From Candidatus Odinarchaeota archaeon (GTDB taxonomy: Archaea; Asgardarchaeota; Odinarchaeia; Odinarchaeales; Odinarchaeaceae): a stretch of 14,107 nucleotides of DNA. A program made the translations under genes and the position numbers. Each line of letters begins with the position of its first letter. Within the stretch, counting starts at the first letter, position 1. A model generated the notes under the pieces. The model did not search any database. It saw only the letters and a program-made list of their open reading frames with translations, and had not been told where the DNA came from. Where the stretch lies: contig JAWBON010000002.1 of NCBI GenBank assembly GCA_038826135.1, positions 30,268 through 44,374 of the forward strand. Direction: 5' to 3'. Positions 4,489 to 13,830 of this stretch are shown piece after piece.

Positions 4489-5733
4489 CTATTTTTTAAG
4501 AGCTTGGACAAGCAGTGGAAGAAACGCACCTACGTCGCTTACAACACCTATCGCCTGCTGTGTTCCGCGATCCATAAGCTTAGCTACAACCGCGGGGTTA
4601 ACATCCACGCATATTGTTTTAACCCATGAAGGTAGCATGTTACCAACAGCTATTGAATGAAGTGTGGTGGCTAACATTACAACAAGGTCAACATCTCTCA
4701 ACGTTTCCCTCATCTTATCCTGGGCTTCAATCGTGTTAGTTATAACTTCCGGCAGCGGGCCGTCATCTCTTATTGAACCGGCTAGTACAAAAGGTACACC
4801 TTTATTTATCAACTCGTACATGACGCCGTCTTTAACTAATCCTTTTTCAACAGCTCTTTTTATGGAGCCTGCTTTTCTAATCTCGTTTATGGTTACTAAG
4901 TGATGTCTATGCCCTCCCTCCATCGGCTGTGTTGTTTTGAGATTCACTCCCAGAGATGTCCCGAAGATCCCTGCTTCTAAATCATGTACCGCTAAGGCGT
5001 TACCAGCTAAAAGAGCGTTTACATAACCCATTTTTATTAATTCCGCTAAACACTCTCTTCCACCTGAATGGATAACCGCCGGCCCGGCTACGAATACTAT
5101 CTTACCGCCTTTCCTTTTTACATTAAGCATTTCCTCTCCAATAGCTTCAGCGTAAACTTTCACCGGCCGCTCGCTTGACACACTCGAGGTCATAAACTCG
5201 AATACGCCTCTTTTACGGGGTCTTTCAGGCGGCTTAACTCTTATCCCTTTAGTCCCGATAACAAACAACTCTCCCTTCTTAACCTTTGATAAAGGAACAC
5301 AATACGCGGCCCCGTCTTTTATCATGATGCCTTTATCCATCTCTATGTTTTTAACCTCAAGCCACTCCCCCTTGTACCTTACATAAGTCTTATGATGGGT
5401 TGTAGAGTAAAATCCGTCGGGGAAAACATTATCTGCTGGGGCTGGAGATAACTCCGCGTCTTCGAAGTCAGGTGATCTTGCACCGAATTTTTGAATAACG
5501 TCTAAAATATGCTGGAGTTCATCATTAGATTTCGCGAAAACTCTTATTGAAGCGTAAGATATATCCTCTTTTGTTCGACCAACTTTTAAATCTATAATTT
5601 CTATTTCTCCATCTAAATCATAAATAGTACCTAAGACTTGTGAAAAAATATTTGAGTCTAATAGATGCCCTTGCAGATTAACAATAGTGTCAAAAGGGTA
5701 TTTTTCAACATCTACACGTCTAGGCTCACCCAT
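4489..5733 (-). CDS. LOR/SDH conserved-domain protein (TIGR00300/COG1915-like), probable ornithine cyclodeaminase of the ArgZ/AgrE C-terminal type
   Basis: GHLLDS, PADNVFPDGFYSTTHHKT, F.FMTSSVSSER, GPAVIHSGG, LLAGNALAVHDLE, LAGSIRDDGPLP, ATTLHSIAVGNMLP, VDVNPAVVAKLMDRG. Start set at ATG 5733 (GGTGG SD 5 nt upstream); ORF track starts at 5742. Confidence 0.85.
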   Translation of the reverse strand: MGEPRRVDVEKYPFDTIVNLQGHLLDSNIFSQVLGTIYDLDGEIEIIDLKVGRTKEDISYASIRVFAKSNDELQHILDVIQKFGARSPDFEDAELSPAPADNVFPDGFYSTTHHKTYVRYKGEWLEVKNIEMDKGIMIKDGAAYCVPLSKVKKGELFVIGTKGIRVKPPERPRKRGVFEFMTSSVSSERPVKVYAEAIGEEMLNVKRKGGKIVFVAGPAVIHSGGRECLAELIKMGYVNALLAGNALAVHDLEAGIFGTSLGVNLKTTQPMEGGHRHHLVTINEIRKAGSIKRAVEKGLVKDGVMYELINKGVPFVLAGSIRDDGPLPEVITNTIEAQDKMRETLRDVDLVVMLATTLHSIAVGNMLPSWVKTICVDVNPAVVAKLMDRGTQQAIGVVSDVGAFLPLLVQALKK

Positions 5734-5821
5734 ACACTCCACCTACGCGTTAAATATTAGATTTCATTTTAATCACTATATTCCACTATCATTAAGAGGA
5801 ATCTATTTTTATAACTTGAAT

Positions 5822-7204
5822 TTAAGAGACCATAACCATGTAAATATCGTTTACATTTGTACCAGTGGGGCCTGTTATTATTTCATCCCCTACTATGTTA
5901 AAGAATGTATTGGTATTAAAACTTGAAAGATATGAATCCGGGTTTAAGCCAAGTTCACCCGCTTTTCTCAAAGTATATGTGTCTGATATAGCGCCTGCAG
6001 CTTTACTGTTACCGTCTAAACCATCAGTTCCCACGCAGCAAACCGTGATATTCTCTAAACTATTAATTTTCGTAATCGCGCTTAAAGTAACAGTCTGGTT
6101 GCGACCGCCTAAACCAGGTTCACCCTTTAACGTCACAGTTGTCTCCCCACCGCAAACTATCAAAGCGGGTTTTTGAACAGGTTTATCTGTTTCCGCTATT
6201 TCTTTAGCTATATTTATAAGAAATACACCTAACTCTCTGGCCTCCCCCTCCATTGTTGAAGATAGTAGAAGCGGGTTATAACCTGTTTTTTCAGCCAGGG
6301 AAACTATGTTATTTAAAGCTATTCTATTACTGCCGATAATTATGTTTTTTACATTTTTAAACACAGGATCTGATTCTTTAAGCGTTTCCGGTCTCAACCC
6401 GTTAACACCTTCATTCAAATACTTTATTATCGAAGCTGGGAGTCTATCTCTAATACTGTATTTATCAATCACGCTCAGGCAGTCTTTAAAAGTGGTTTGA
6501 TCAGGGGCTGTAGGACCCGCGCCTATTGTATCTATCCTATCCCCTACAACATCGGATATAATAAGGCTTATTATTTTTTTAGGATAGGCTCTCTTAGCCA
6601 GCCACCCGCCTGCTATACGCGATAAATGTTTCTTAATAGCATTCATCTCAATAATATTCGCTCCGGAGGATAGTAGAGTTTTATGAGTATCCTGAAGATC
6701 TTTTAATGCTATCCCTTCAGCTGGGTAAGTGATCAGCGCTGAACCGCCGCCTGTGATTAAACAGAGAATTAAATCTCGGTCATCTGCTTCATTGATTAGA
6801 TTAAAAATTCTCTCAGCAGCGTGAATACATCTATCATCCGGTATAGGATGAGAGCTCTCCAAGATTTTTATCTTTTTAGTTTTAAAATAGCCGGATGTCC
6901 CTGATAAAACTGCAACTATCCCCGCCTCTATGTGCTCCCCGATCTTCTCCTCTACGGCTTCAGCAAGATACCCGCTGCCTTTACCAGCGCCAACCACGTA
7001 TATCCTGCGCGCTTCACTTTTATTTATTCTAAACCCTGCGATGTTAATGTATTTACCATCAACGCTTATCTTATTCATAATAAGGCTTCTGGGGTGAACT
7101 GAATTTAACGCGCTTTCAACAATGTCTAACATCATCCTCCTTGCACGTCTCTGCTTGTCTGTGAGAGCGTTATTCACCAAGGTCTCCTTATTTTTAACGA
7201 TCAT
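5822..7204 (-). CDS. gck: Glycerate 2-kinase, MOFRL/class II family
   Basis: VVGAGKGS, CLITGGGSAL, ISDVVGD, GGETTV, GGRNQ, GTDGLDG, TGPTGTNVND; GAGGT SD upstream. Confidence 0.88.
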   Translation of the reverse strand: MIVKNKETLVNNALTDKQRRARRMMLDIVESALNSVHPRSLIMNKISVDGKYINIAGFRINKSEARRIYVVGAGKGSGYLAEAVEEKIGEHIEAGIVAVLSGTSGYFKTKKIKILESSHPIPDDRCIHAAERIFNLINEADDRDLILCLITGGGSALITYPAEGIALKDLQDTHKTLLSSGANIIEMNAIKKHLSRIAGGWLAKRAYPKKIISLIISDVVGDRIDTIGAGPTAPDQTTFKDCLSVIDKYSIRDRLPASIIKYLNEGVNGLRPETLKESDPVFKNVKNIIIGSNRIALNNIVSLAEKTGYNPLLLSSTMEGEARELGVFLINIAKEIAETDKPVQKPALIVCGGETTVTLKGEPGLGGRNQTVTLSAITKINSLENITVCCVGTDGLDGNSKAAGAISDTYTLRKAGELGLNPDSYLSSFNTNTFFNIVGDEIITGPTGTNVNDIYMVMVS

Positions 7205-9163: not shown

Positions 9164-9221
9164 TGTTTATTTAGGCTTATGACCAAATTAGATTATAATC
9201 AATAATTATTAGGTGTGCGCC

Positions 9222-10904
9222 ATGTCTGTGTCAAAGTATGTTTTTAAAATAATACTTGTGGGTGACGGGAGGGTTGGTAAAACATCTCTACTCTTACGGT
9301 TTACAGAGAACAAGTTTAGGGCTGAATACAAGAAAACTTTAGGGACAGATTTCGCTGTTAAAAACGTGAAGGTTAACGGCGAGGAGGTTAAACTTCAAAT
9401 ATGGGATTTAGGAGGTCAAGAACTGTTCCGTGATCTTCGTAAAGCATTTTATCCAGGCGCTAAAGCAGCTCTGATCGTCTATGATGTTACTAACAGGCGG
9501 TCTTTTGAAAGCGTTCCCGCCTGGCACGCGGATATAGTTTCAGCTCTTAAAAAAATACCTATAATCGTTGTCGGTAACAAGATTGATTTACCGAGAGACG
9601 TCTCATATCAAGATGCGAAGAGTTTATGTGACCGCCTTTCAGTGGAATATATTGAAACAAGCGCTAAACTAGATCAGAATGTTGCAGACGCTTTTCTAAA
9701 AATAGCTTCAAACGCCGTGATCTCAGCGAAAGGTCTTTCACAGAAAGCAGCACCCCCTGAACCTGTTGTCAAGATACCTGCAATAGTTGAAAAACCTATT
9801 TTAACCACACCTAAAATATTCGAATCACCTAAACATGTTTCAAGCGGTGTGAATAGTTTCTATGAATGGTTTGATAGAAACAACGATTATCTTAACTCTA
9901 TAGCAGAGGATTTGCTTACACTGGATATCTCTAAGGAAAAAGAGCTAATCCCGAATATGGAAGGTGAACTTTTTAAGTTAATAGGGGCTCACGGAATTAA
10001 CTCGTCATTGGAAGCTAATAATACTTGTCTGAGACTATACTCCGATTCTAAAAATCCAGTGTTAAGTATAATACTTGATTTAAATCTTAACAGCATCGAT
10101 TATTTTAAAAAATGTTTAATCAGCTTACTGTTAGCCGCCGTGGCTTTAAAAAAATATAATATAAATAGTAACGTGAATTTCTACATAGTATTCGGGGATT
10201 ATTCAAAAGAGGATGAAGATTATAAGGAGTATTTCAGAGAGGTTGCGAAAAAATCAGATTATACAATAATGATTGTTGAAAGAGAATTTGACTCAATAGG
10301 GATAATACCGAAAAAAACACTCTCATACACTGTAAGTTTCCAAGGGGATAAAAGCTACAGCAGCCCATATATCTTAAATAACGCTCTTTTAAAATATGTA
10401 GCCAAACTTTTTAAACAGGTTGAAGAACCGTTAGAAAAAGTCAATTTATCGAATTCGAAAATTAATATAACGTCAATAAACGGTTTCAACACTGAAACAT
10501 CATCATCCTCTATAGGTCTTGATTTTTCAGTAAACTATGCTGAAAACACTGAAAAGATTAAGCAAATGTTAAACGATGTTAAGCAAACTCTTGTCGAGGA
10601 TGGAAACCTGAAGATTGTAATAGAGGAAAATACGGATAAACTTTCACCTATGATAACTCATGAAGCGCCTTTACTACTTGTTTTAAGAGATATTATTTAC
10701 TATAATCTAGAGAGAATTGTTAGAATAACATACGAGGAGCCTTACGGTAGTATCGCAAATCTCTCCTCACTACCTAAACCCTTCGTTCTATTAGGTTTCA
10801 CTAAAATACCGCTTACTAATATTAAAACACAGGTTTTTAATGATATTATAATCCCGGCTAAAATCATCTCAGGCACTTTGATTGATTTAACAGGTAGTGG
10901 GTAA
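9222..10904 (+). CDS. Rab-like small GTPase fused via a Pro-rich linker to a degenerate M20 peptidase-like domain
   Basis: G1 GDGRVGKTS, G2 YKKTLGTDF, G3 WDLGGQE, G4 NKID, G5 ETSAK in about 9222-9722; linker 9723-9848; C-terminal ~350 aa follows the ArgE/DapE element order by manual alignment. Start ATG 9222 (GGTGT SD 5 nt upstream); ORF track uses GTG 9213. GTPase call is very secure, M20-like call about 0.65. Confidence 0.9.
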   Translation: MSVSKYVFKIILVGDGRVGKTSLLLRFTENKFRAEYKKTLGTDFAVKNVKVNGEEVKLQIWDLGGQELFRDLRKAFYPGAKAALIVYDVTNRRSFESVPAWHADIVSALKKIPIIVVGNKIDLPRDVSYQDAKSLCDRLSVEYIETSAKLDQNVADAFLKIASNAVISAKGLSQKAAPPEPVVKIPAIVEKPILTTPKIFESPKHVSSGVNSFYEWFDRNNDYLNSIAEDLLTLDISKEKELIPNMEGELFKLIGAHGINSSLEANNTCLRLYSDSKNPVLSIILDLNLNSIDYFKKCLISLLLAAVALKKYNINSNVNFYIVFGDYSKEDEDYKEYFREVAKKSDYTIMIVEREFDSIGIIPKKTLSYTVSFQGDKSYSSPYILNNALLKYVAKLFKQVEEPLEKVNLSNSKINITSINGFNTETSSSSIGLDFSVNYAENTEKIKQMLNDVKQTLVEDGNLKIVIEENTDKLSPMITHEAPLLLVLRDIIYYNLERIVRITYEEPYGSIANLSSLPKPFVLLGFTKIPLTNIKTQVFNDIIIPAKIISGTLIDLTGSG

Positions 10905-10923: not shown

Positions 10924-12519
10924 ATGGAAACTATAACCCCAGCTAAGATGAGAGAGTTAGAGCTTAACAGCGCATATATTGGTTTAAACCCTCTAATATT
11001 AATGGAGAACGCTGGCAGAGGTGCTTACGAAGAGATTAAAAAAAGATACAACCCGGATAATCATAAATTCATCGTATTCTGCGGGACTGGTAATAACGGT
11101 GGAGACGGATTCGTCATCTCCCGTCAACTGTCCTCTCATAACATAGTTGACGTGGTTCTTTTAGGTCACCCTGATAAAATATCACGGCCAGAAGCTAAAA
11201 TAAACTGGGATATTATTGAACGATTATATCAGAGAATTAGAACTCACATAGTGCTGTTCAAAGAAGATTTAAATAAAATAACACAGCTGGTTAAAGAAGC
11301 TGATGTGATAATAGACGCTATTTTAGGGACGGGTATAAAAGGCTCTCTCAGGGAACCTTTGAAAACCGCTATAAGAATGATAAATGAGTCTGAGGCTAAA
11401 AAAATATCAATAGACATCCCCTCAGGTATGGATCCGGAGTCGGGTGAAACAGCAGGTATTTCAGTGAAACCGGATTTAACTATAACATTTCACAAGGCGA
11501 AAAAAGGATTTATCGGTAATGAAAAAGTTTTAGGGGAGCTTGTAATAACGCCGATAAGTATACCTGCAGAGGTTGAACAGGTAATAGGTCCAGGTGACGT
11601 TATAACAGTTTTGAAGAAAAAAAATATTGAAAGCCGCAAAGGGGATTTCGGTAAACTGCTAGTGATCGGTGGAAGCGATAAATACCATGGTGCTCCAATA
11701 TTCTCTGCAATGGCTGCTATAAGAGCGGGGGTGGATCTTGTAATAATAGTCGCACCGGAAGCTATAGCAAATACAATTAGATCTTATACACCTAATTTTA
11801 TCGTTAGAGGATATCCGGGTAAATATTTAACAGCCGAGTCGTTGAAACACTTCCCTGATCTAATAAACTGGGCTGACGCCGTGGTTTTAGGGCCGGGTCT
11901 AGGGGTTGAAGCTGAAACTAAAGAAGCTGTTAGTAAACTATTCAAATTAATAAAGGATGCTAATAAACCCTTAGTCGTCGACGCTGACGCGATCAAAGTT
12001 TTAGCTGAAAACCACGCTATCCTAGCCGGTTCACCTACAGTTACAACACCTCATAGAGGAGAGTTTAAGCTGTTAACAGGTATAGAGATTAAAGACAGCG
12101 TAGACATAGTGAATATGATAGAGAAAATATTATCTAAGATCAGTGAATTTAATATAACGTTCATAGTAAAAGGGGCTGTTGATTTAGTGGCTAATAAAGA
12201 TTCTTTCAAACTCGATCTTTTAGGTAACCCGGGTATGACTGTCGGCGGAATCGGGGATGTCTTAACCGGTGTACTGGGCTGCTTACTATCCCAAGGTGTG
12301 AAGCCCTTCCAAGCAGCGTGTGCAGCTATATTTATAACAGGCCTTTCAGGCAATCTTATAGCTGGTAAGAAAGGCTATCATTTCACAGCCTCTGAAATGA
12401 TAGAGTACATACCTTCAGCTATAGAGGAAGTATTATCTTTTGAAAACAGTTTAAACATTACACCACCGGATAAAAAGATTTATGAGGCTCTTAAGTTTAG
12501 AAAAACTGAAATACTTTAA
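10924..12519 (+). CDS. nnr: Bifunctional NAD(P)H-hydrate epimerase/dehydratase (NnrE-NnrD fusion, YjeF)
   Basis: LMENAG, GTGNNGGDG, IDAILGTG, SIDIPSG (epimerase); KGDFGKLLVIGGS, GPGLG, VVDADA, TPHRGEF, GNPGMTVGGIGDVLTG (dehydratase). ATG 10924 has a GTGA SD 5 nt upstream; ORF track uses GTG 10897. Confidence 0.95.
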   Translation: METITPAKMRELELNSAYIGLNPLILMENAGRGAYEEIKKRYNPDNHKFIVFCGTGNNGGDGFVISRQLSSHNIVDVVLLGHPDKISRPEAKINWDIIERLYQRIRTHIVLFKEDLNKITQLVKEADVIIDAILGTGIKGSLREPLKTAIRMINESEAKKISIDIPSGMDPESGETAGISVKPDLTITFHKAKKGFIGNEKVLGELVITPISIPAEVEQVIGPGDVITVLKKKNIESRKGDFGKLLVIGGSDKYHGAPIFSAMAAIRAGVDLVIIVAPEAIANTIRSYTPNFIVRGYPGKYLTAESLKHFPDLINWADAVVLGPGLGVEAETKEAVSKLFKLIKDANKPLVVDADAIKVLAENHAILAGSPTVTTPHRGEFKLLTGIEIKDSVDIVNMIEKILSKISEFNITFIVKGAVDLVANKDSFKLDLLGNPGMTVGGIGDVLTGVLGCLLSQGVKPFQAACAAIFITGLSGNLIAGKKGYHFTASEMIEYIPSAIEEVLSFENSLNITPPDKKIYEALKFRKTEIL

Positions 12520-12570
12520 TATTTATTTAGTAGAATAAAGTAATATTCTATAAAAACAAGCGTGATGGGG

Positions 12571-13431
12571 ATGCAATTATTCGATGTGAATGATAACGGT
12601 GATCTTACCGAGATAAGCGATAGCCTCACTATAAGAGAGCATCTTAAAAGCGGCTCGGTTTTCATCATAGTCGACGATGATAAAAAGAAAATATGGATAT
12701 GGAAAGGCACTGAGGCGCCTGTACGGAAGAAATTTATAAGCGCTAGAGCCGCATCACAACTACGAGAGGAGCGTGGATTAAATTACAAGGTCTATAGTGA
12801 GGATGAAGGTGAAGAATCTGATAGTTTTCTTAAGTCTATAGGGGAGACTCCTAAACATGTTGAAGCTAAAAAACCCCCTGTAACAGAGAAGAAAACTGTT
12901 GAAAAAACGCACGCGGTTTCCAAACCGGTTGGTGAGGAGCTTAAAAGAAGTGTGGAAAGCACGCTCATAGAAAAAGAAGTAAAGGAAACAGTTGAGCCAC
13001 GACACACCCCTGTTGTTAAAAATGTAACAGAATCAGCTGAAACCACGTCTATACTTGAAAAACTTGAAACAGTTCCATTACCTAGGGGGTTTGAAAGAGA
13101 GCTTGTTATAGTCGGTAACAATATTTACACTGTTTCTGAGCATACAGTTCACTTCCTAGGTCAAAAACAGATTAAGAAAAGACTTGAAAAAGCCCCTCTT
13201 GGAACAGTGCCGGAGGGTGTTTTCCTAGCTGAGGATTACACCCCTCGAGTAATAGTGAATAACGGTGCTGTTATGGCTATTGAATTCTTAAAGAAAATGG
13301 AAGCGGTTGAGGTTCCAACAGAGGAGGTTTCATCCATAAGAGACGAGTTAAAATATAATTTAAGCGATTTAGTTGACTTCTTTAAAATCGAAATAAAAGG
13401 CAATGAATCAGATGAGAACGATGAGGGTTGA
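12571..13431 (+). CDS. Single gelsolin-domain protein with charged linker, C-terminal globular domain and acidic tail (Asgard 1DGelX-like architecture)
   Basis: LKSGSVFIIVDDDKKKIWIWKGTEAPVRKKFISARAASQL..KVYSEDEGEESDSFLKSIG fits the gelsolin repeat pattern (L.s..vFilD....iw.W.G.......A...a..l......e.eG.E...F). Then an E/K/T/V/P-rich linker and a beta-rich ~85-aa domain. ATG 12571 has a GTGA SD 5 nt upstream; ORF track uses 12562. Confidence 0.82.
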   Translation: MQLFDVNDNGDLTEISDSLTIREHLKSGSVFIIVDDDKKKIWIWKGTEAPVRKKFISARAASQLREERGLNYKVYSEDEGEESDSFLKSIGETPKHVEAKKPPVTEKKTVEKTHAVSKPVGEELKRSVESTLIEKEVKETVEPRHTPVVKNVTESAETTSILEKLETVPLPRGFERELVIVGNNIYTVSEHTVHFLGQKQIKKRLEKAPLGTVPEGVFLAEDYTPRVIVNNGAVMAIEFLKKMEAVEVPTEEVSSIRDELKYNLSDLVDFFKIEIKGNESDENDEG

Positions 13432-13434
13432 GAA

Positions 13435-13830
13435 ATGGCGGATGGTGTGAGTAAAGAACAGGCTGAAGCTTTAGCTAAGCATTTGAGCGATATCGCTATG
13501 AAATCGGATCTTGAAGCTTTAGCGGTGGTGACAAGAGAGGGTGTTAGATTAGCATTTAAAGTAGTGGGCTCTAAAAAAATTGAGCCGGATTTGATGTCCG
13601 CTATATCCGCTGCTATGCTTCATGTCGGTGAAAGCGCTGTGGAGAAAATGGGGTTGAAAGAGCTTTGGGAGGTTATAATTACAGGGGAAGAGGGTTATAT
13701 AGTTTTATCAGGGGCTGGCAGGCTTGTTTTAATAGGTTCAGGTTCAAGCTTGAAAACATTAACTAATACAGTCTCAGTTTTCAGAACATACTCTAGGAGG
13801 ATAGCGGATCTTTTCCCGTTAAAAGATTGA
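13435..13830 (+). CDS. Roadblock/LC7 (MglB/LAMTOR-like) domain protein
   Basis: 131 aa; ALAVVTREGVRLA, DLMSAISAAMLHVGESAVEKMGLKELWEVIITGEEGYIVLSGAG match the roadblock pattern; 3 nt after the gelsolin stop. Confidence 0.88.
   Translation: MADGVSKEQAEALAKHLSDIAMKSDLEALAVVTREGVRLAFKVVGSKKIEPDLMSAISAAMLHVGESAVEKMGLKELWEVIITGEEGYIVLSGAGRLVLIGSGSSLKTLTNTVSVFRTYSRRIADLFPLKD

Follow-up and report, generated by a model that had tools for sequence, protein, structure and literature searches.

Why would a Rab-like small GTPase carry, on the same polypeptide, the body of a metallopeptidase that has lost its metal site? The question is raised by a single gene in a stretch of 14,107 nucleotides from contig JAWBON010000002.1 of a Candidatus Odinarchaeota archaeon (GenBank assembly GCA_038826135.1), referred to here as the window, for which an initial annotation, made from the letters alone, had proposed a small GTPase fused to a catalytically dead M20 (ArgE/DapE-like) peptidase fold. 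The protein combines an intact GTP switch, a flexible tether, and an M20 body without a metal site, and it is held under purifying selection. In Odinarchaeum, we think it probable, if by no means certain, that the M20 body serves the GTPase to which it is joined as an effector or scaffold without catalytic activity, dimerizing and/or binding partners.

The gene occupies positions 9222–10904 of the plus strand, as do all of its parts described below, and runs from an ATG at 9222 to a stop codon at 10902–10904 (560 aa). Residue numbers follow the longer open reading frame (ORF) that opens with a GTG at 9213 (9213–10904, 563 codons); every peptide quoted in the initial annotation can be located in its translation, and the interval 9849–10904 corresponds to residues 213–563 plus the stop. 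The later start is preferred because the orthologues begin MSPSKY... and align with Met4, encoded by ATG 9222, and because, by eye, a GGTG lies 6–9 nt and an A/T-rich TTATAA-like box some 25 nt upstream of that codon. The ESM Atlas entry for the protein also begins at residue 4. The Rab-like GTPase domain (residues 8–172, 9234–9728), with intact G1–G5 motifs and the catalytic Gln69, is followed by a proline-rich, poorly conserved linker of about 40 aa (residues 173–212, 9729–9848), recognizable by its low identity and its high ratio of nonsynonymous to synonymous substitution rates (dN/dS), and differing in length among the aligned lineages. The remaining 351 aa (residues 213–563, 9849–10901) form a degenerate M20 (ArgE/DapE-type) domain, a pseudo-peptidase by its fold, homology, lost ligands, and dN/dS, into which a lid (“dimerization”) sub-domain is inserted at approximately residues 362–476 (10296–10640).

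The M20 identity of this C-terminal half cannot be reached by routine annotation, since residues 205–563 return no match in Pfam or NCBIfam even at E values up to 1 and no meaningful sequence match in the PDB by phmmer. The window protein likewise fails to match NCBIfam TIGR01910 (cut-off 217.6 bits). Protein searches with the dead domain find relatives only in Odinarchaeia (3 representatives, 6 clusters); across the six relatives, those of full length all consist of GTPase plus tail, the sole exception being a 278-aa fragment. The link to true M20 proteins came only through genome searches, by way of orthologues. Structural comparison leads to the same family. Feature neighbors in the ESM Atlas are M20 clusters, and the Atlas's own model gives template-modeling scores of 0.55–0.61 against M20 models over 297–323 residues. 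AlphaFold2 (AF2), given five family sequences alone, returns a low-confidence model (predicted local distance difference test, pLDDT, 50.6), used only for local-structure (3Di) matching, for which the top 50 Foldseek matches in the PDB are nonetheless M20 chains without exception, full length, with E down to 2e-10; DapE, CPG2, ArgE, PepT, LysK, and carnosinase are all among them.

Profile comparison by hhalign is weak against a single LysK sequence (1.5% probability), rises to 79.6% (E 1.5e-5) when the family profile is set against 32 LysK-type M20 proteins, and reaches 97.5% over 344 columns (E 7e-12) when the M20 domains are taken from the orthologous fusions described below. With a 48-row alignment that includes M20 relatives, AF2 produces a model of pLDDT 81 and predicted template-modeling score 0.78, used here for topology, whose top 50 Foldseek matches in the PDB are again only M20 (E 1e-12). 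This model aligns to M20 structures with VIA-align Z scores of 18.7–15 over ~300–330 residues, and to the isolated DapE catalytic domain 4H2K with a VIA Z of 15.3 and a root-mean-square deviation of 3.3 Å over 207 residues. Taken with orthologues that pass the Pfam thresholds for Peptidase_M20 and M20_dimer, the ESM Atlas, Foldseek, and hhalign results confirm the initial annotation's view that the C-terminal half is a two-lobed M20 (ArgE/DapE-type) fold, a catalytic α/β domain with an inserted lid, and the order of M20 elements that it gave holds. The lid, too, is kept, as the AF2 order of strands and helices indicates; it retains the ...LNNALLK... and SKINI motifs and aligns with the Pfam M20_dimer region of orthologue P0131 (residues 429–504).

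Compared with M20 enzymes of the ArgE, DapE, LysK, and CPG2 kinds (DapE 3IC1 and 7UOI; CPG2 1CG2), the fusion has the same two lobes and the same order of secondary structure, and it keeps the lysine of the D-x-K motif, the A-D-Y motif, and the N-A motif of the lid helix. In contrast to them, it is linked to a GTPase, falls below the curated thresholds, and lacks both the His/Asp/Glu/Glu/His metal site and the GRG loop. Site calls were made from a 16-sequence MAFFT alignment and from a table of sites that takes the genome's own LysK as its reference. In the former first metal-ligand region (10077–10103), the first His has become Asp289, the Asp of the HxD motif Asn291, and the bridging Asp Tyr297, while Lys299 of the D-x-K motif is kept. 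The GRG loop has gone within a 23-column (23-residue) deletion that lies between Asn291 and Tyr297 and is found in both the window protein and the lineage represented by P0009. In the region of the former Glu-Glu pair and GEP Glu (10209–10277), the Zn2 Glu of the GEP motif is Val355. The C-terminal metal His is Leu534 (10812–10814), and the G-P-G that precedes it is reduced to Gly528.

The loss of metal ligands and of the GRG loop that the initial annotation had read from the window is thereby upheld. Its placing of the Glu-Glu pair at Y330–S331 is the one detail that differs: MAFFT puts E333–D334 at these positions, and Y330–S331 stands there when the register is anchored on strands. The pair is not conserved in the clade, being K-N in P0009, nor in the second Odinarchaeia family (f2, below), which has G-L. 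Comparison by hhalign with LysK-type M20 proteins also places E333 at the first Glu, with the second Glu facing a gap. Asp289, at the old His position, is invariant in all five dead-clade sequences; no invariant His or Cys is found anywhere in the dead-clade domain.

Is the Odinarchaeum protein an isolated oddity? A hidden Markov model of the domain matches all seven Odinarchaeia genomes searched, the gene occurring once per genome even in genomes of 1.3–1.4 Mb. In three of the seven, the match belongs to the second family, f2, and lies in ORFs of 611–612 aa that are followed, as in the window, by the gene for Nnr. The f2 proteins P0131 and P0132 pass the curated Pfam cut-offs for Ras, for Peptidase_M20 (E 5e-18 to 1e-19, 66–71 bits vs 24.6), and for M20_dimer (E 5e-8 to 1e-6, 29–33 bits vs 21). 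When the M20 part of f2 is searched against 400 Asgard genomes, it finds fusions of 575–590 aa in two further families (33–35% identity, E 1e-55 to 1e-69), one stand-alone relative of 399 aa, and ordinary M20 genes of 380–430 aa at E 1e-36 or worse. Exact-sequence look-up places the further fusions in Freyarchaeia, including the closed chromosome of Ca. Freyarchaeum deiterrae, and in Jordarchaeales; at NCBI they bear the name “ArgE/DapE family deacylase” (575–581 aa; WXG40460.1, MEM2133287.1, MEM1724104.1). The search for the same architecture in Asgard proteomes that the initial annotation had suggested is answered by f2, Jordarchaeales, and Freyarchaeia together. A scan of genome contigs with the full-length fusion gives full-length matches only in Freyarchaeia, Jordarchaeales, and f2, its seed patterns being GTPase-based, so that distant fusions in other lineages could escape it.

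These fusions share the order of Rab-like GTPase, linker, and M20 domain with lid, but differ from the Odinarchaeia proteins in their short linker and canonical M20 domain. The Freyarchaeia motifs match those of DapE 7UOI position by position. Reading the first His, bridging Asp, Glu-Glu pair, GEP Glu, and C-terminal His in turn, Freyarchaeia have H, D, E-E, E, and H, with all metal ligands present; Jordarchaeales have H, D, E-E, G, and H, lacking the Zn2 Glu only; f2 has H, C, G-L, S, and N, so that only the His-x-Asp of the metal site is retained; the P0009 lineage has D, E, K-N, S, and H; and the window has D289, Y297, E333–D334 or Y330–S331, V355, and L534. The bit scores against TIGR01910 fall along the same path, from 291 in Freyarchaeia through 243 in Jordarchaeales to 163 in f2, for which it is the best family even though the cut-off is missed, and to no match in the window.

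In a tree of M20 domains, the Odinarchaeia sequences stand apart from all others (support 100/100), the Freyarchaeia and Jordarchaeales domains are their closest relatives, and a branch of 2.2 substitutions per site leads to the fully dead clade. As judged from alignment and tree, one family displays a decay series that leads from an intact Freyarchaeia site, by way of Jordarchaeales without the Zn2 Glu and f2 with His-x-Asp only, to the dead clade of Odinarchaeum and P0009, in which every ligand has gone and the domain has changed very rapidly. The Odinarchaeum protein descends from catalytically competent fusions or is, at the least, close kin to them. Because intact versions of the fusion exist in Freyarchaeia and Jordarchaeales, the Odinarchaeum protein reads as the decayed end of an existing family and not as a one-off. 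As a separate observation, one Jordarchaeales fusion (locus L021) also lacks the lid His, which is Tyr, and both L015 and L021 have Gly for the GEP Glu; partial decay of the site, to go by these residues, extends beyond Odinarchaeia into Jordarchaeales.

Loss of catalysis has evidently not meant loss of constraint. For three Odinarchaeum gene pairs (dS 0.88–1.0), dN/dS by the NG86 method is 0.02–0.05 for the GTPase, 0.32–0.45 for the linker, and 0.155–0.168 for the M20-like domain overall, within which the lid stands at 0.24–0.26 and the remnants of the catalytic lobe at 0.09–0.19. The f2 M20 domain gives 0.065 at dS 0.63. Within the genus, identity is 45–72% in the linker and 90–95% in the GTPase. 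These rates, with the presence of the gene in all seven Odinarchaeia genomes, show purifying selection that maintains the dead domain, more loosely than it does the G domain; a dN/dS near 0.16 shows that it is still functional. With its catalytic residues lost, its fold kept, and purifying selection acting on it, the domain is a pseudoenzyme in the operational sense of the word.

The fusion itself is real, as the initial annotation supposed, on the joint evidence of structures, profiles, and orthologues. The ORF is uninterrupted in independent assemblies from all seven Odinarchaeia genomes, a closed 1.42-Mb chromosome included; closed chromosomes with a continuous fusion ORF are CP091871.1 and CP147778.1. 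The check on sequence spanning the junction also came out in its favor, for contigs from hot-spring metagenomes of three studies cross the GTPase–linker–M20 junction (9279–9926, 9566–9866, and 9696–9943) with no indels or joints. Among the sequencing runs, none of RNA is listed as carrying the gene; short pieces of it occur in two runs labeled metatranscriptomic, but these were flagged as probably DNA and so do not count as evidence of expression.

The GTPase half poses no problem of identification. Residues 12–167 match Pfam Ras with E 1.1e-53 (181.6 bits vs a cut-off of 21.6), and the domain matches NCBIfam TIGR00231 with E 5e-32. G1 (GDGRVGKT), G3 (DLGGQ), G4 (NKID), and G5 (SAK) are intact and invariant among orthologues, as is Thr42 of switch I, and the switch II Gln is Gln69. 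Its nearest solved relatives are Rabs (3e-40 to 2e-39 in the PDB), among them Rab14 (3e-40), Rab1A, and a Thorarchaeota Rab (9e-40; PDB 7EZB; Tran et al., 2024, PMC10933270). Gtr1_RagA in Pfam reaches only 23.8 bits, over the G domain only, far below the score for Ras. With Rab GTPases, that of Thorarchaeota included, the fusion has in common G1–G5, the Gln of switch II, and motifs of the RabF type (phmmer E 1e-40 to 1e-37 against Rab14, Rab1, and the Thorarchaeota Rab), but it differs in having DLGGQ where Rabs have DTAGQ in switch II, Arg20 at the position of Ras Gly13, and a 390-residue extension in place of the prenylation cysteines; a C-terminal Cys prenylation motif was sought in the translation and not found, the protein ending in ...DLTGSG. 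The Gly13 position of the P-loop (window 9264–9272, residues 18–20) is Gly in Freyarchaeia and Jordarchaeales, Met in f2, Ala in P0009, and Arg20 in Odinarchaeum; the shift of this residue goes hand in hand with peptidase decay, a hint that the cycle of the GTPase has changed as well.

In a tree of GTPase domains, which needs 3 changes, stand-alone Thorarchaeota Rabs group with the fused Odinarchaeia G domains (96/95). These stand-alone Rab-like GTPases are 174 aa long and come from loci L081, L089, and L105, one of them from the AB_25 genome; each lies downstream of conserved genes of ~430 aa and 110–130 aa that have no Pfam match. An M20 gene was looked for beside these three and none lies nearby.

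The gene neighborhood supplies candidate partners. Downstream of the fusion, on the same strand, the gene for Nnr, a bifunctional NAD(P)H-hydrate repair enzyme (YjeF_N plus Carb_kinase by Pfam, supported by synteny; 10924–12519), begins 19 nt past the fusion stop, a gap that measures 17–23 nt across Odinarchaeia lineages. It is followed by a 289-aa protein with a gelsolin-repeat match (12562–13431; Pfam Gelsolin, E 2.4e-5), conserved in position across Odinarchaeia, and, 3 nt further on, by a 131-aa Roadblock/LC7 protein (13435–13830; Pfam Robl_LC7, E 2.2e-5; PDB 7F8M, 1.2e-5), whose position is kept in all Odinarchaeia lineages. The order of fusion, Nnr, a protein of ~290–317 aa, and roadblock is conserved on one strand in three Odinarchaeia lineages, in all of which the roadblock gene is followed by PGM and, at a greater distance, by LeuRS on the opposite strand. 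The f2 counterpart of the gelsolin-like protein (317 aa) has no Pfam match.

Upstream, the lineages diverge. An ACT-homoserine dehydrogenase pair precedes the fusion only in Odinarchaeum and the P0009 lineage; as a conserved mark of an amino-acid sensor it was considered and rejected, being absent in f2, Jordarchaeales, and Freyarchaeia. In f2, AspDH-NadA-NadC and another GTPase lie upstream. Directly upstream of the f2 fusion, and divergently oriented on the minus strand, a gene encodes a protein of 281 aa in which an N-terminal extension of ~125 aa accompanies an Arf/Ras-like G domain (locus L108, 4732–5577). The Freyarchaeia and Jordarchaeales fusions have a Pyr_redox_2 oxidoreductase and a NUDIX gene upstream, and in Freyarchaeia LeuRS also lies nearby; unlike the Odinarchaeia fusions, they have no Nnr, gelsolin-like, or roadblock gene next to them.

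How might such a protein work? Its ancestor would have been a deacylase or peptidase coupled to a GTPase; the M20 body of the Odinarchaeum protein would have no catalysis left and would act as a built-in effector or scaffold. M20 enzymes are lid-mediated homodimers, which makes a constitutive dimer the simplest model: the lid would pair two G domains, much as the C-terminal domains of Rag and Roco proteins do. Additionally or instead, the body may offer a binding surface whose exposure follows the GTP/GDP state. Roadblock proteins regulate small GTPases, MglB and Ragulator being examples, and their fold is that of a GAP (GTPase-activating protein) or GEF (guanine-nucleotide exchange factor) scaffold. 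Candidate partners are the proteins encoded by those downstream genes that are conserved across the class, foremost the Roadblock/LC7 protein, which by analogy could be such a scaffold here. The fusion resembles Rag/Gtr and Roco GTPases in that a G domain is permanently joined to a domain whose parent family homodimerizes, and in the roadblock genes nearby. It differs from them in that its C-terminal domain is M20-like, neither roadblock nor COR; the resemblance is one of analogy only. A predicted complex of two copies of the C-terminal domain gave a median of 0.33, below the mark of 0.42, which speaks neither way on dimerization.

Several points weigh against this picture. Within the dead domain, constraint is lowest in the lid (0.24–0.26), which does not commend it as the main surface to have been retained. 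Neither the roadblock nor the gelsolin-like neighbor is bound up with the fusion itself, because both are absent beside the Freyarchaeia and Jordarchaeales fusions. The geometry of the pLDDT-81 model leans on true M20 sequences and is no independent proof. A single origin of the fusion does not emerge from the GTPase tree, where the stand-alone Thorarchaeota Rabs group with the fused Odinarchaeia G domains. Given the invariant Asp289 and the acidic residues near it, a non-canonical cation site retains a small probability. Dimerization, partner binding, and an effect of the nucleotide state are themselves proposals.

Among the other explanations, the one that survives best makes the protein a ligand sensor, in which the dead M20 cleft would bind a small molecule (an amino acid, N-acyl amino acid, dipeptide, or NAD-related metabolite) and relay its occupancy to the G domain or to regulators of it, as a nutrient switch of the Rag/Ragulator kind. 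The cleft keeps its architecture, and nothing in the domain is better conserved than what remains of the catalytic lobe (dN/dS 0.09–0.19); ACT-homoserine dehydrogenase precedes the gene in Odinarchaeum and in the P0009 lineage, a roadblock gene belongs to the cluster, and dead peptidase folds have been reused as binding modules elsewhere, as in nicastrin and the transferrin receptor. On the other hand, a 23-residue segment of the active site has been deleted and the metal ligands that anchor substrate are gone, no ligand-binding residue has been identified, and the ACT-homoserine dehydrogenase pair is not conserved in f2, where AspDH-NadA-NadC stands instead, nor in Freyarchaeia or Jordarchaeales. 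We regard a sensor as possible but doubtful, and the retained amino-acid or peptide pocket suggested by the initial annotation as pure conjecture.

It is improbable, too, that the M20-like body acts within its own chain, docking on the switch regions as a GAP-, GEF-, or GDI-like (guanine-nucleotide dissociation inhibitor-like) element and so making the protein a self-contained timer. Such a role would suit two domains covalently joined through a flexible linker, the strongly conserved N-terminal helix of the M20-like domain, just behind the linker, whose motif YxWF..N...L....EDL is invariant across lineages only 26% identical, and the change at the Ras Gly13 position alongside peptidase decay. 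Yet the 40-residue linker evolves almost freely, and M20 proteins are not known to regulate GTPases.

Could the protein still be an enzyme, with a non-canonical site in which Asp289 and Glu333 or Glu356, for example, would bind Mg, Mn, or Ca? The invariance of Asp289 in five of five dead-clade sequences and the position of E333 at the catalytic Glu in both the MAFFT and hhalign registers speak for it. But neither E333 nor E356 is conserved in P0009, no conserved His or Cys remains anywhere in the dead-clade domain, the bridging Asp and Zn2 Glu have given way to Tyr and Val and the C-terminal His to Leu or Phe, the GRG segment is deleted, and a branch of 2.2 substitutions per site is typical of release from catalytic constraint; we consider surviving catalysis very improbable. 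Finally, that the fusion is a mis-assembly or frameshift, or its C-terminal part unrelated to M20, as the want of any direct Pfam, NCBIfam, or PDB match for residues 205–563 and the low confidence of the first AF2 model might suggest, has next to no chance of being right, being refuted computationally by the same ORF in seven of seven Odinarchaeia genomes with a closed chromosome among them, bridging contigs from three studies without indels, profile homology of 97.5%, and syntenic orthologues that pass the Pfam M20 thresholds.

Returning to the preferred reading of the M20 body as a non-catalytic effector or scaffold, what is new about it? The initial annotation knew of no described Ras-family/M20 fusion, and in one respect it was right: no description of a small-GTPase/M20 fusion, in Asgard archaea or elsewhere, was found in the literature, nor was any paper on the Freyarchaeia and Jordarchaeales “ArgE/DapE family deacylase” fusions, which appear to be uncharacterized. 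Intact versions from these two groups are, however, already in public databases. Two very familiar families here yield a new domain architecture and, in the M20-like domain, a new pseudoenzyme, and the fusion family as known here now extends to Jordarchaeales and Freyarchaeia, with an intermediate form in f2. Annotations as “GTP-binding protein” or “ArgE/DapE family deacylase” each conceal one half of it. Nicastrin, nicalin, and the transferrin receptor are dead peptidase folds in non-catalytic roles. Like the fusion, these MH-clan proteins keep a co-catalytic metallopeptidase fold without its metal ligands; unlike it, they belong to M28, are eukaryotic membrane proteins, and are not fused to a GTPase, and the fusion family still has active relatives.

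Asgard archaea possess many Rab-, Arf-, and Rag-like GTPases, and almost nothing is known of what these control; a partner domain in the same polypeptide offers a direct experimental handle on one of them. The natural series from active (Freyarchaeia) through half-decayed (f2) to dead (Odinarchaeum) can show an enzyme becoming a regulatory module, and proteins from thermophiles with tiny genomes, in which the gene is universally retained, should suit biochemistry and structural work. In its widest form, the proposal would be that Rab-like GTPase–M20 fusions are an undescribed family of Odinarchaeia, Jordarchaeales, and Freyarchaeia in which a GTPase is hard-wired to its effector, the Freyarchaeia members being GTP-gated deacylases or peptidases, and the Odinarchaeia members having lost catalysis step by step to become a sensor or scaffold acting together with roadblock and gelsolin-like proteins. 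Taken whole, this seems to us unlikely; if true, it would amount to a prokaryotic forerunner of the eukaryotic Rag/Rab logic that couples metabolite state to cytoskeleton or trafficking.

Some smaller observations may be recorded. NAD-related genes recur beside the fusion, which may be coincidence: Nnr downstream in all Odinarchaeia (window 10924–12519), AspDH-NadA-NadC upstream in f2 (L108, 1594–4248), NadC and NUDIX upstream in Jordarchaeales (L026, 4123–4989 and 7478–7870), and NUDIX upstream in Freyarchaeia (L024, 5001–5408). Several database titles are probably loose or wrong labels. Genomes G001–G003, which are assigned to the window's own class and order, go under the titles “Promethearchaeota archaeon” and “Candidatus Hodarchaeota archaeon isolate DZ1B.307”, and the record named “Thermoproteota archaeon isolate S9B3_HD70” contains a Jordarchaeales-type fusion (the sequence of L015). 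Further upstream of the fusion in the window, the minus strand (4489–7204) encodes an ArgZ-like/LOR-SDH protein of 417 aa and a DUF4147 plus MOFRL glycerate-kinase-like protein of 460 aa; the same pair occurs in Ca. Odinarchaeum yellowstonii, there accompanied by an extra 2-hydroxyacid dehydrogenase gene that the window does not have at that place.

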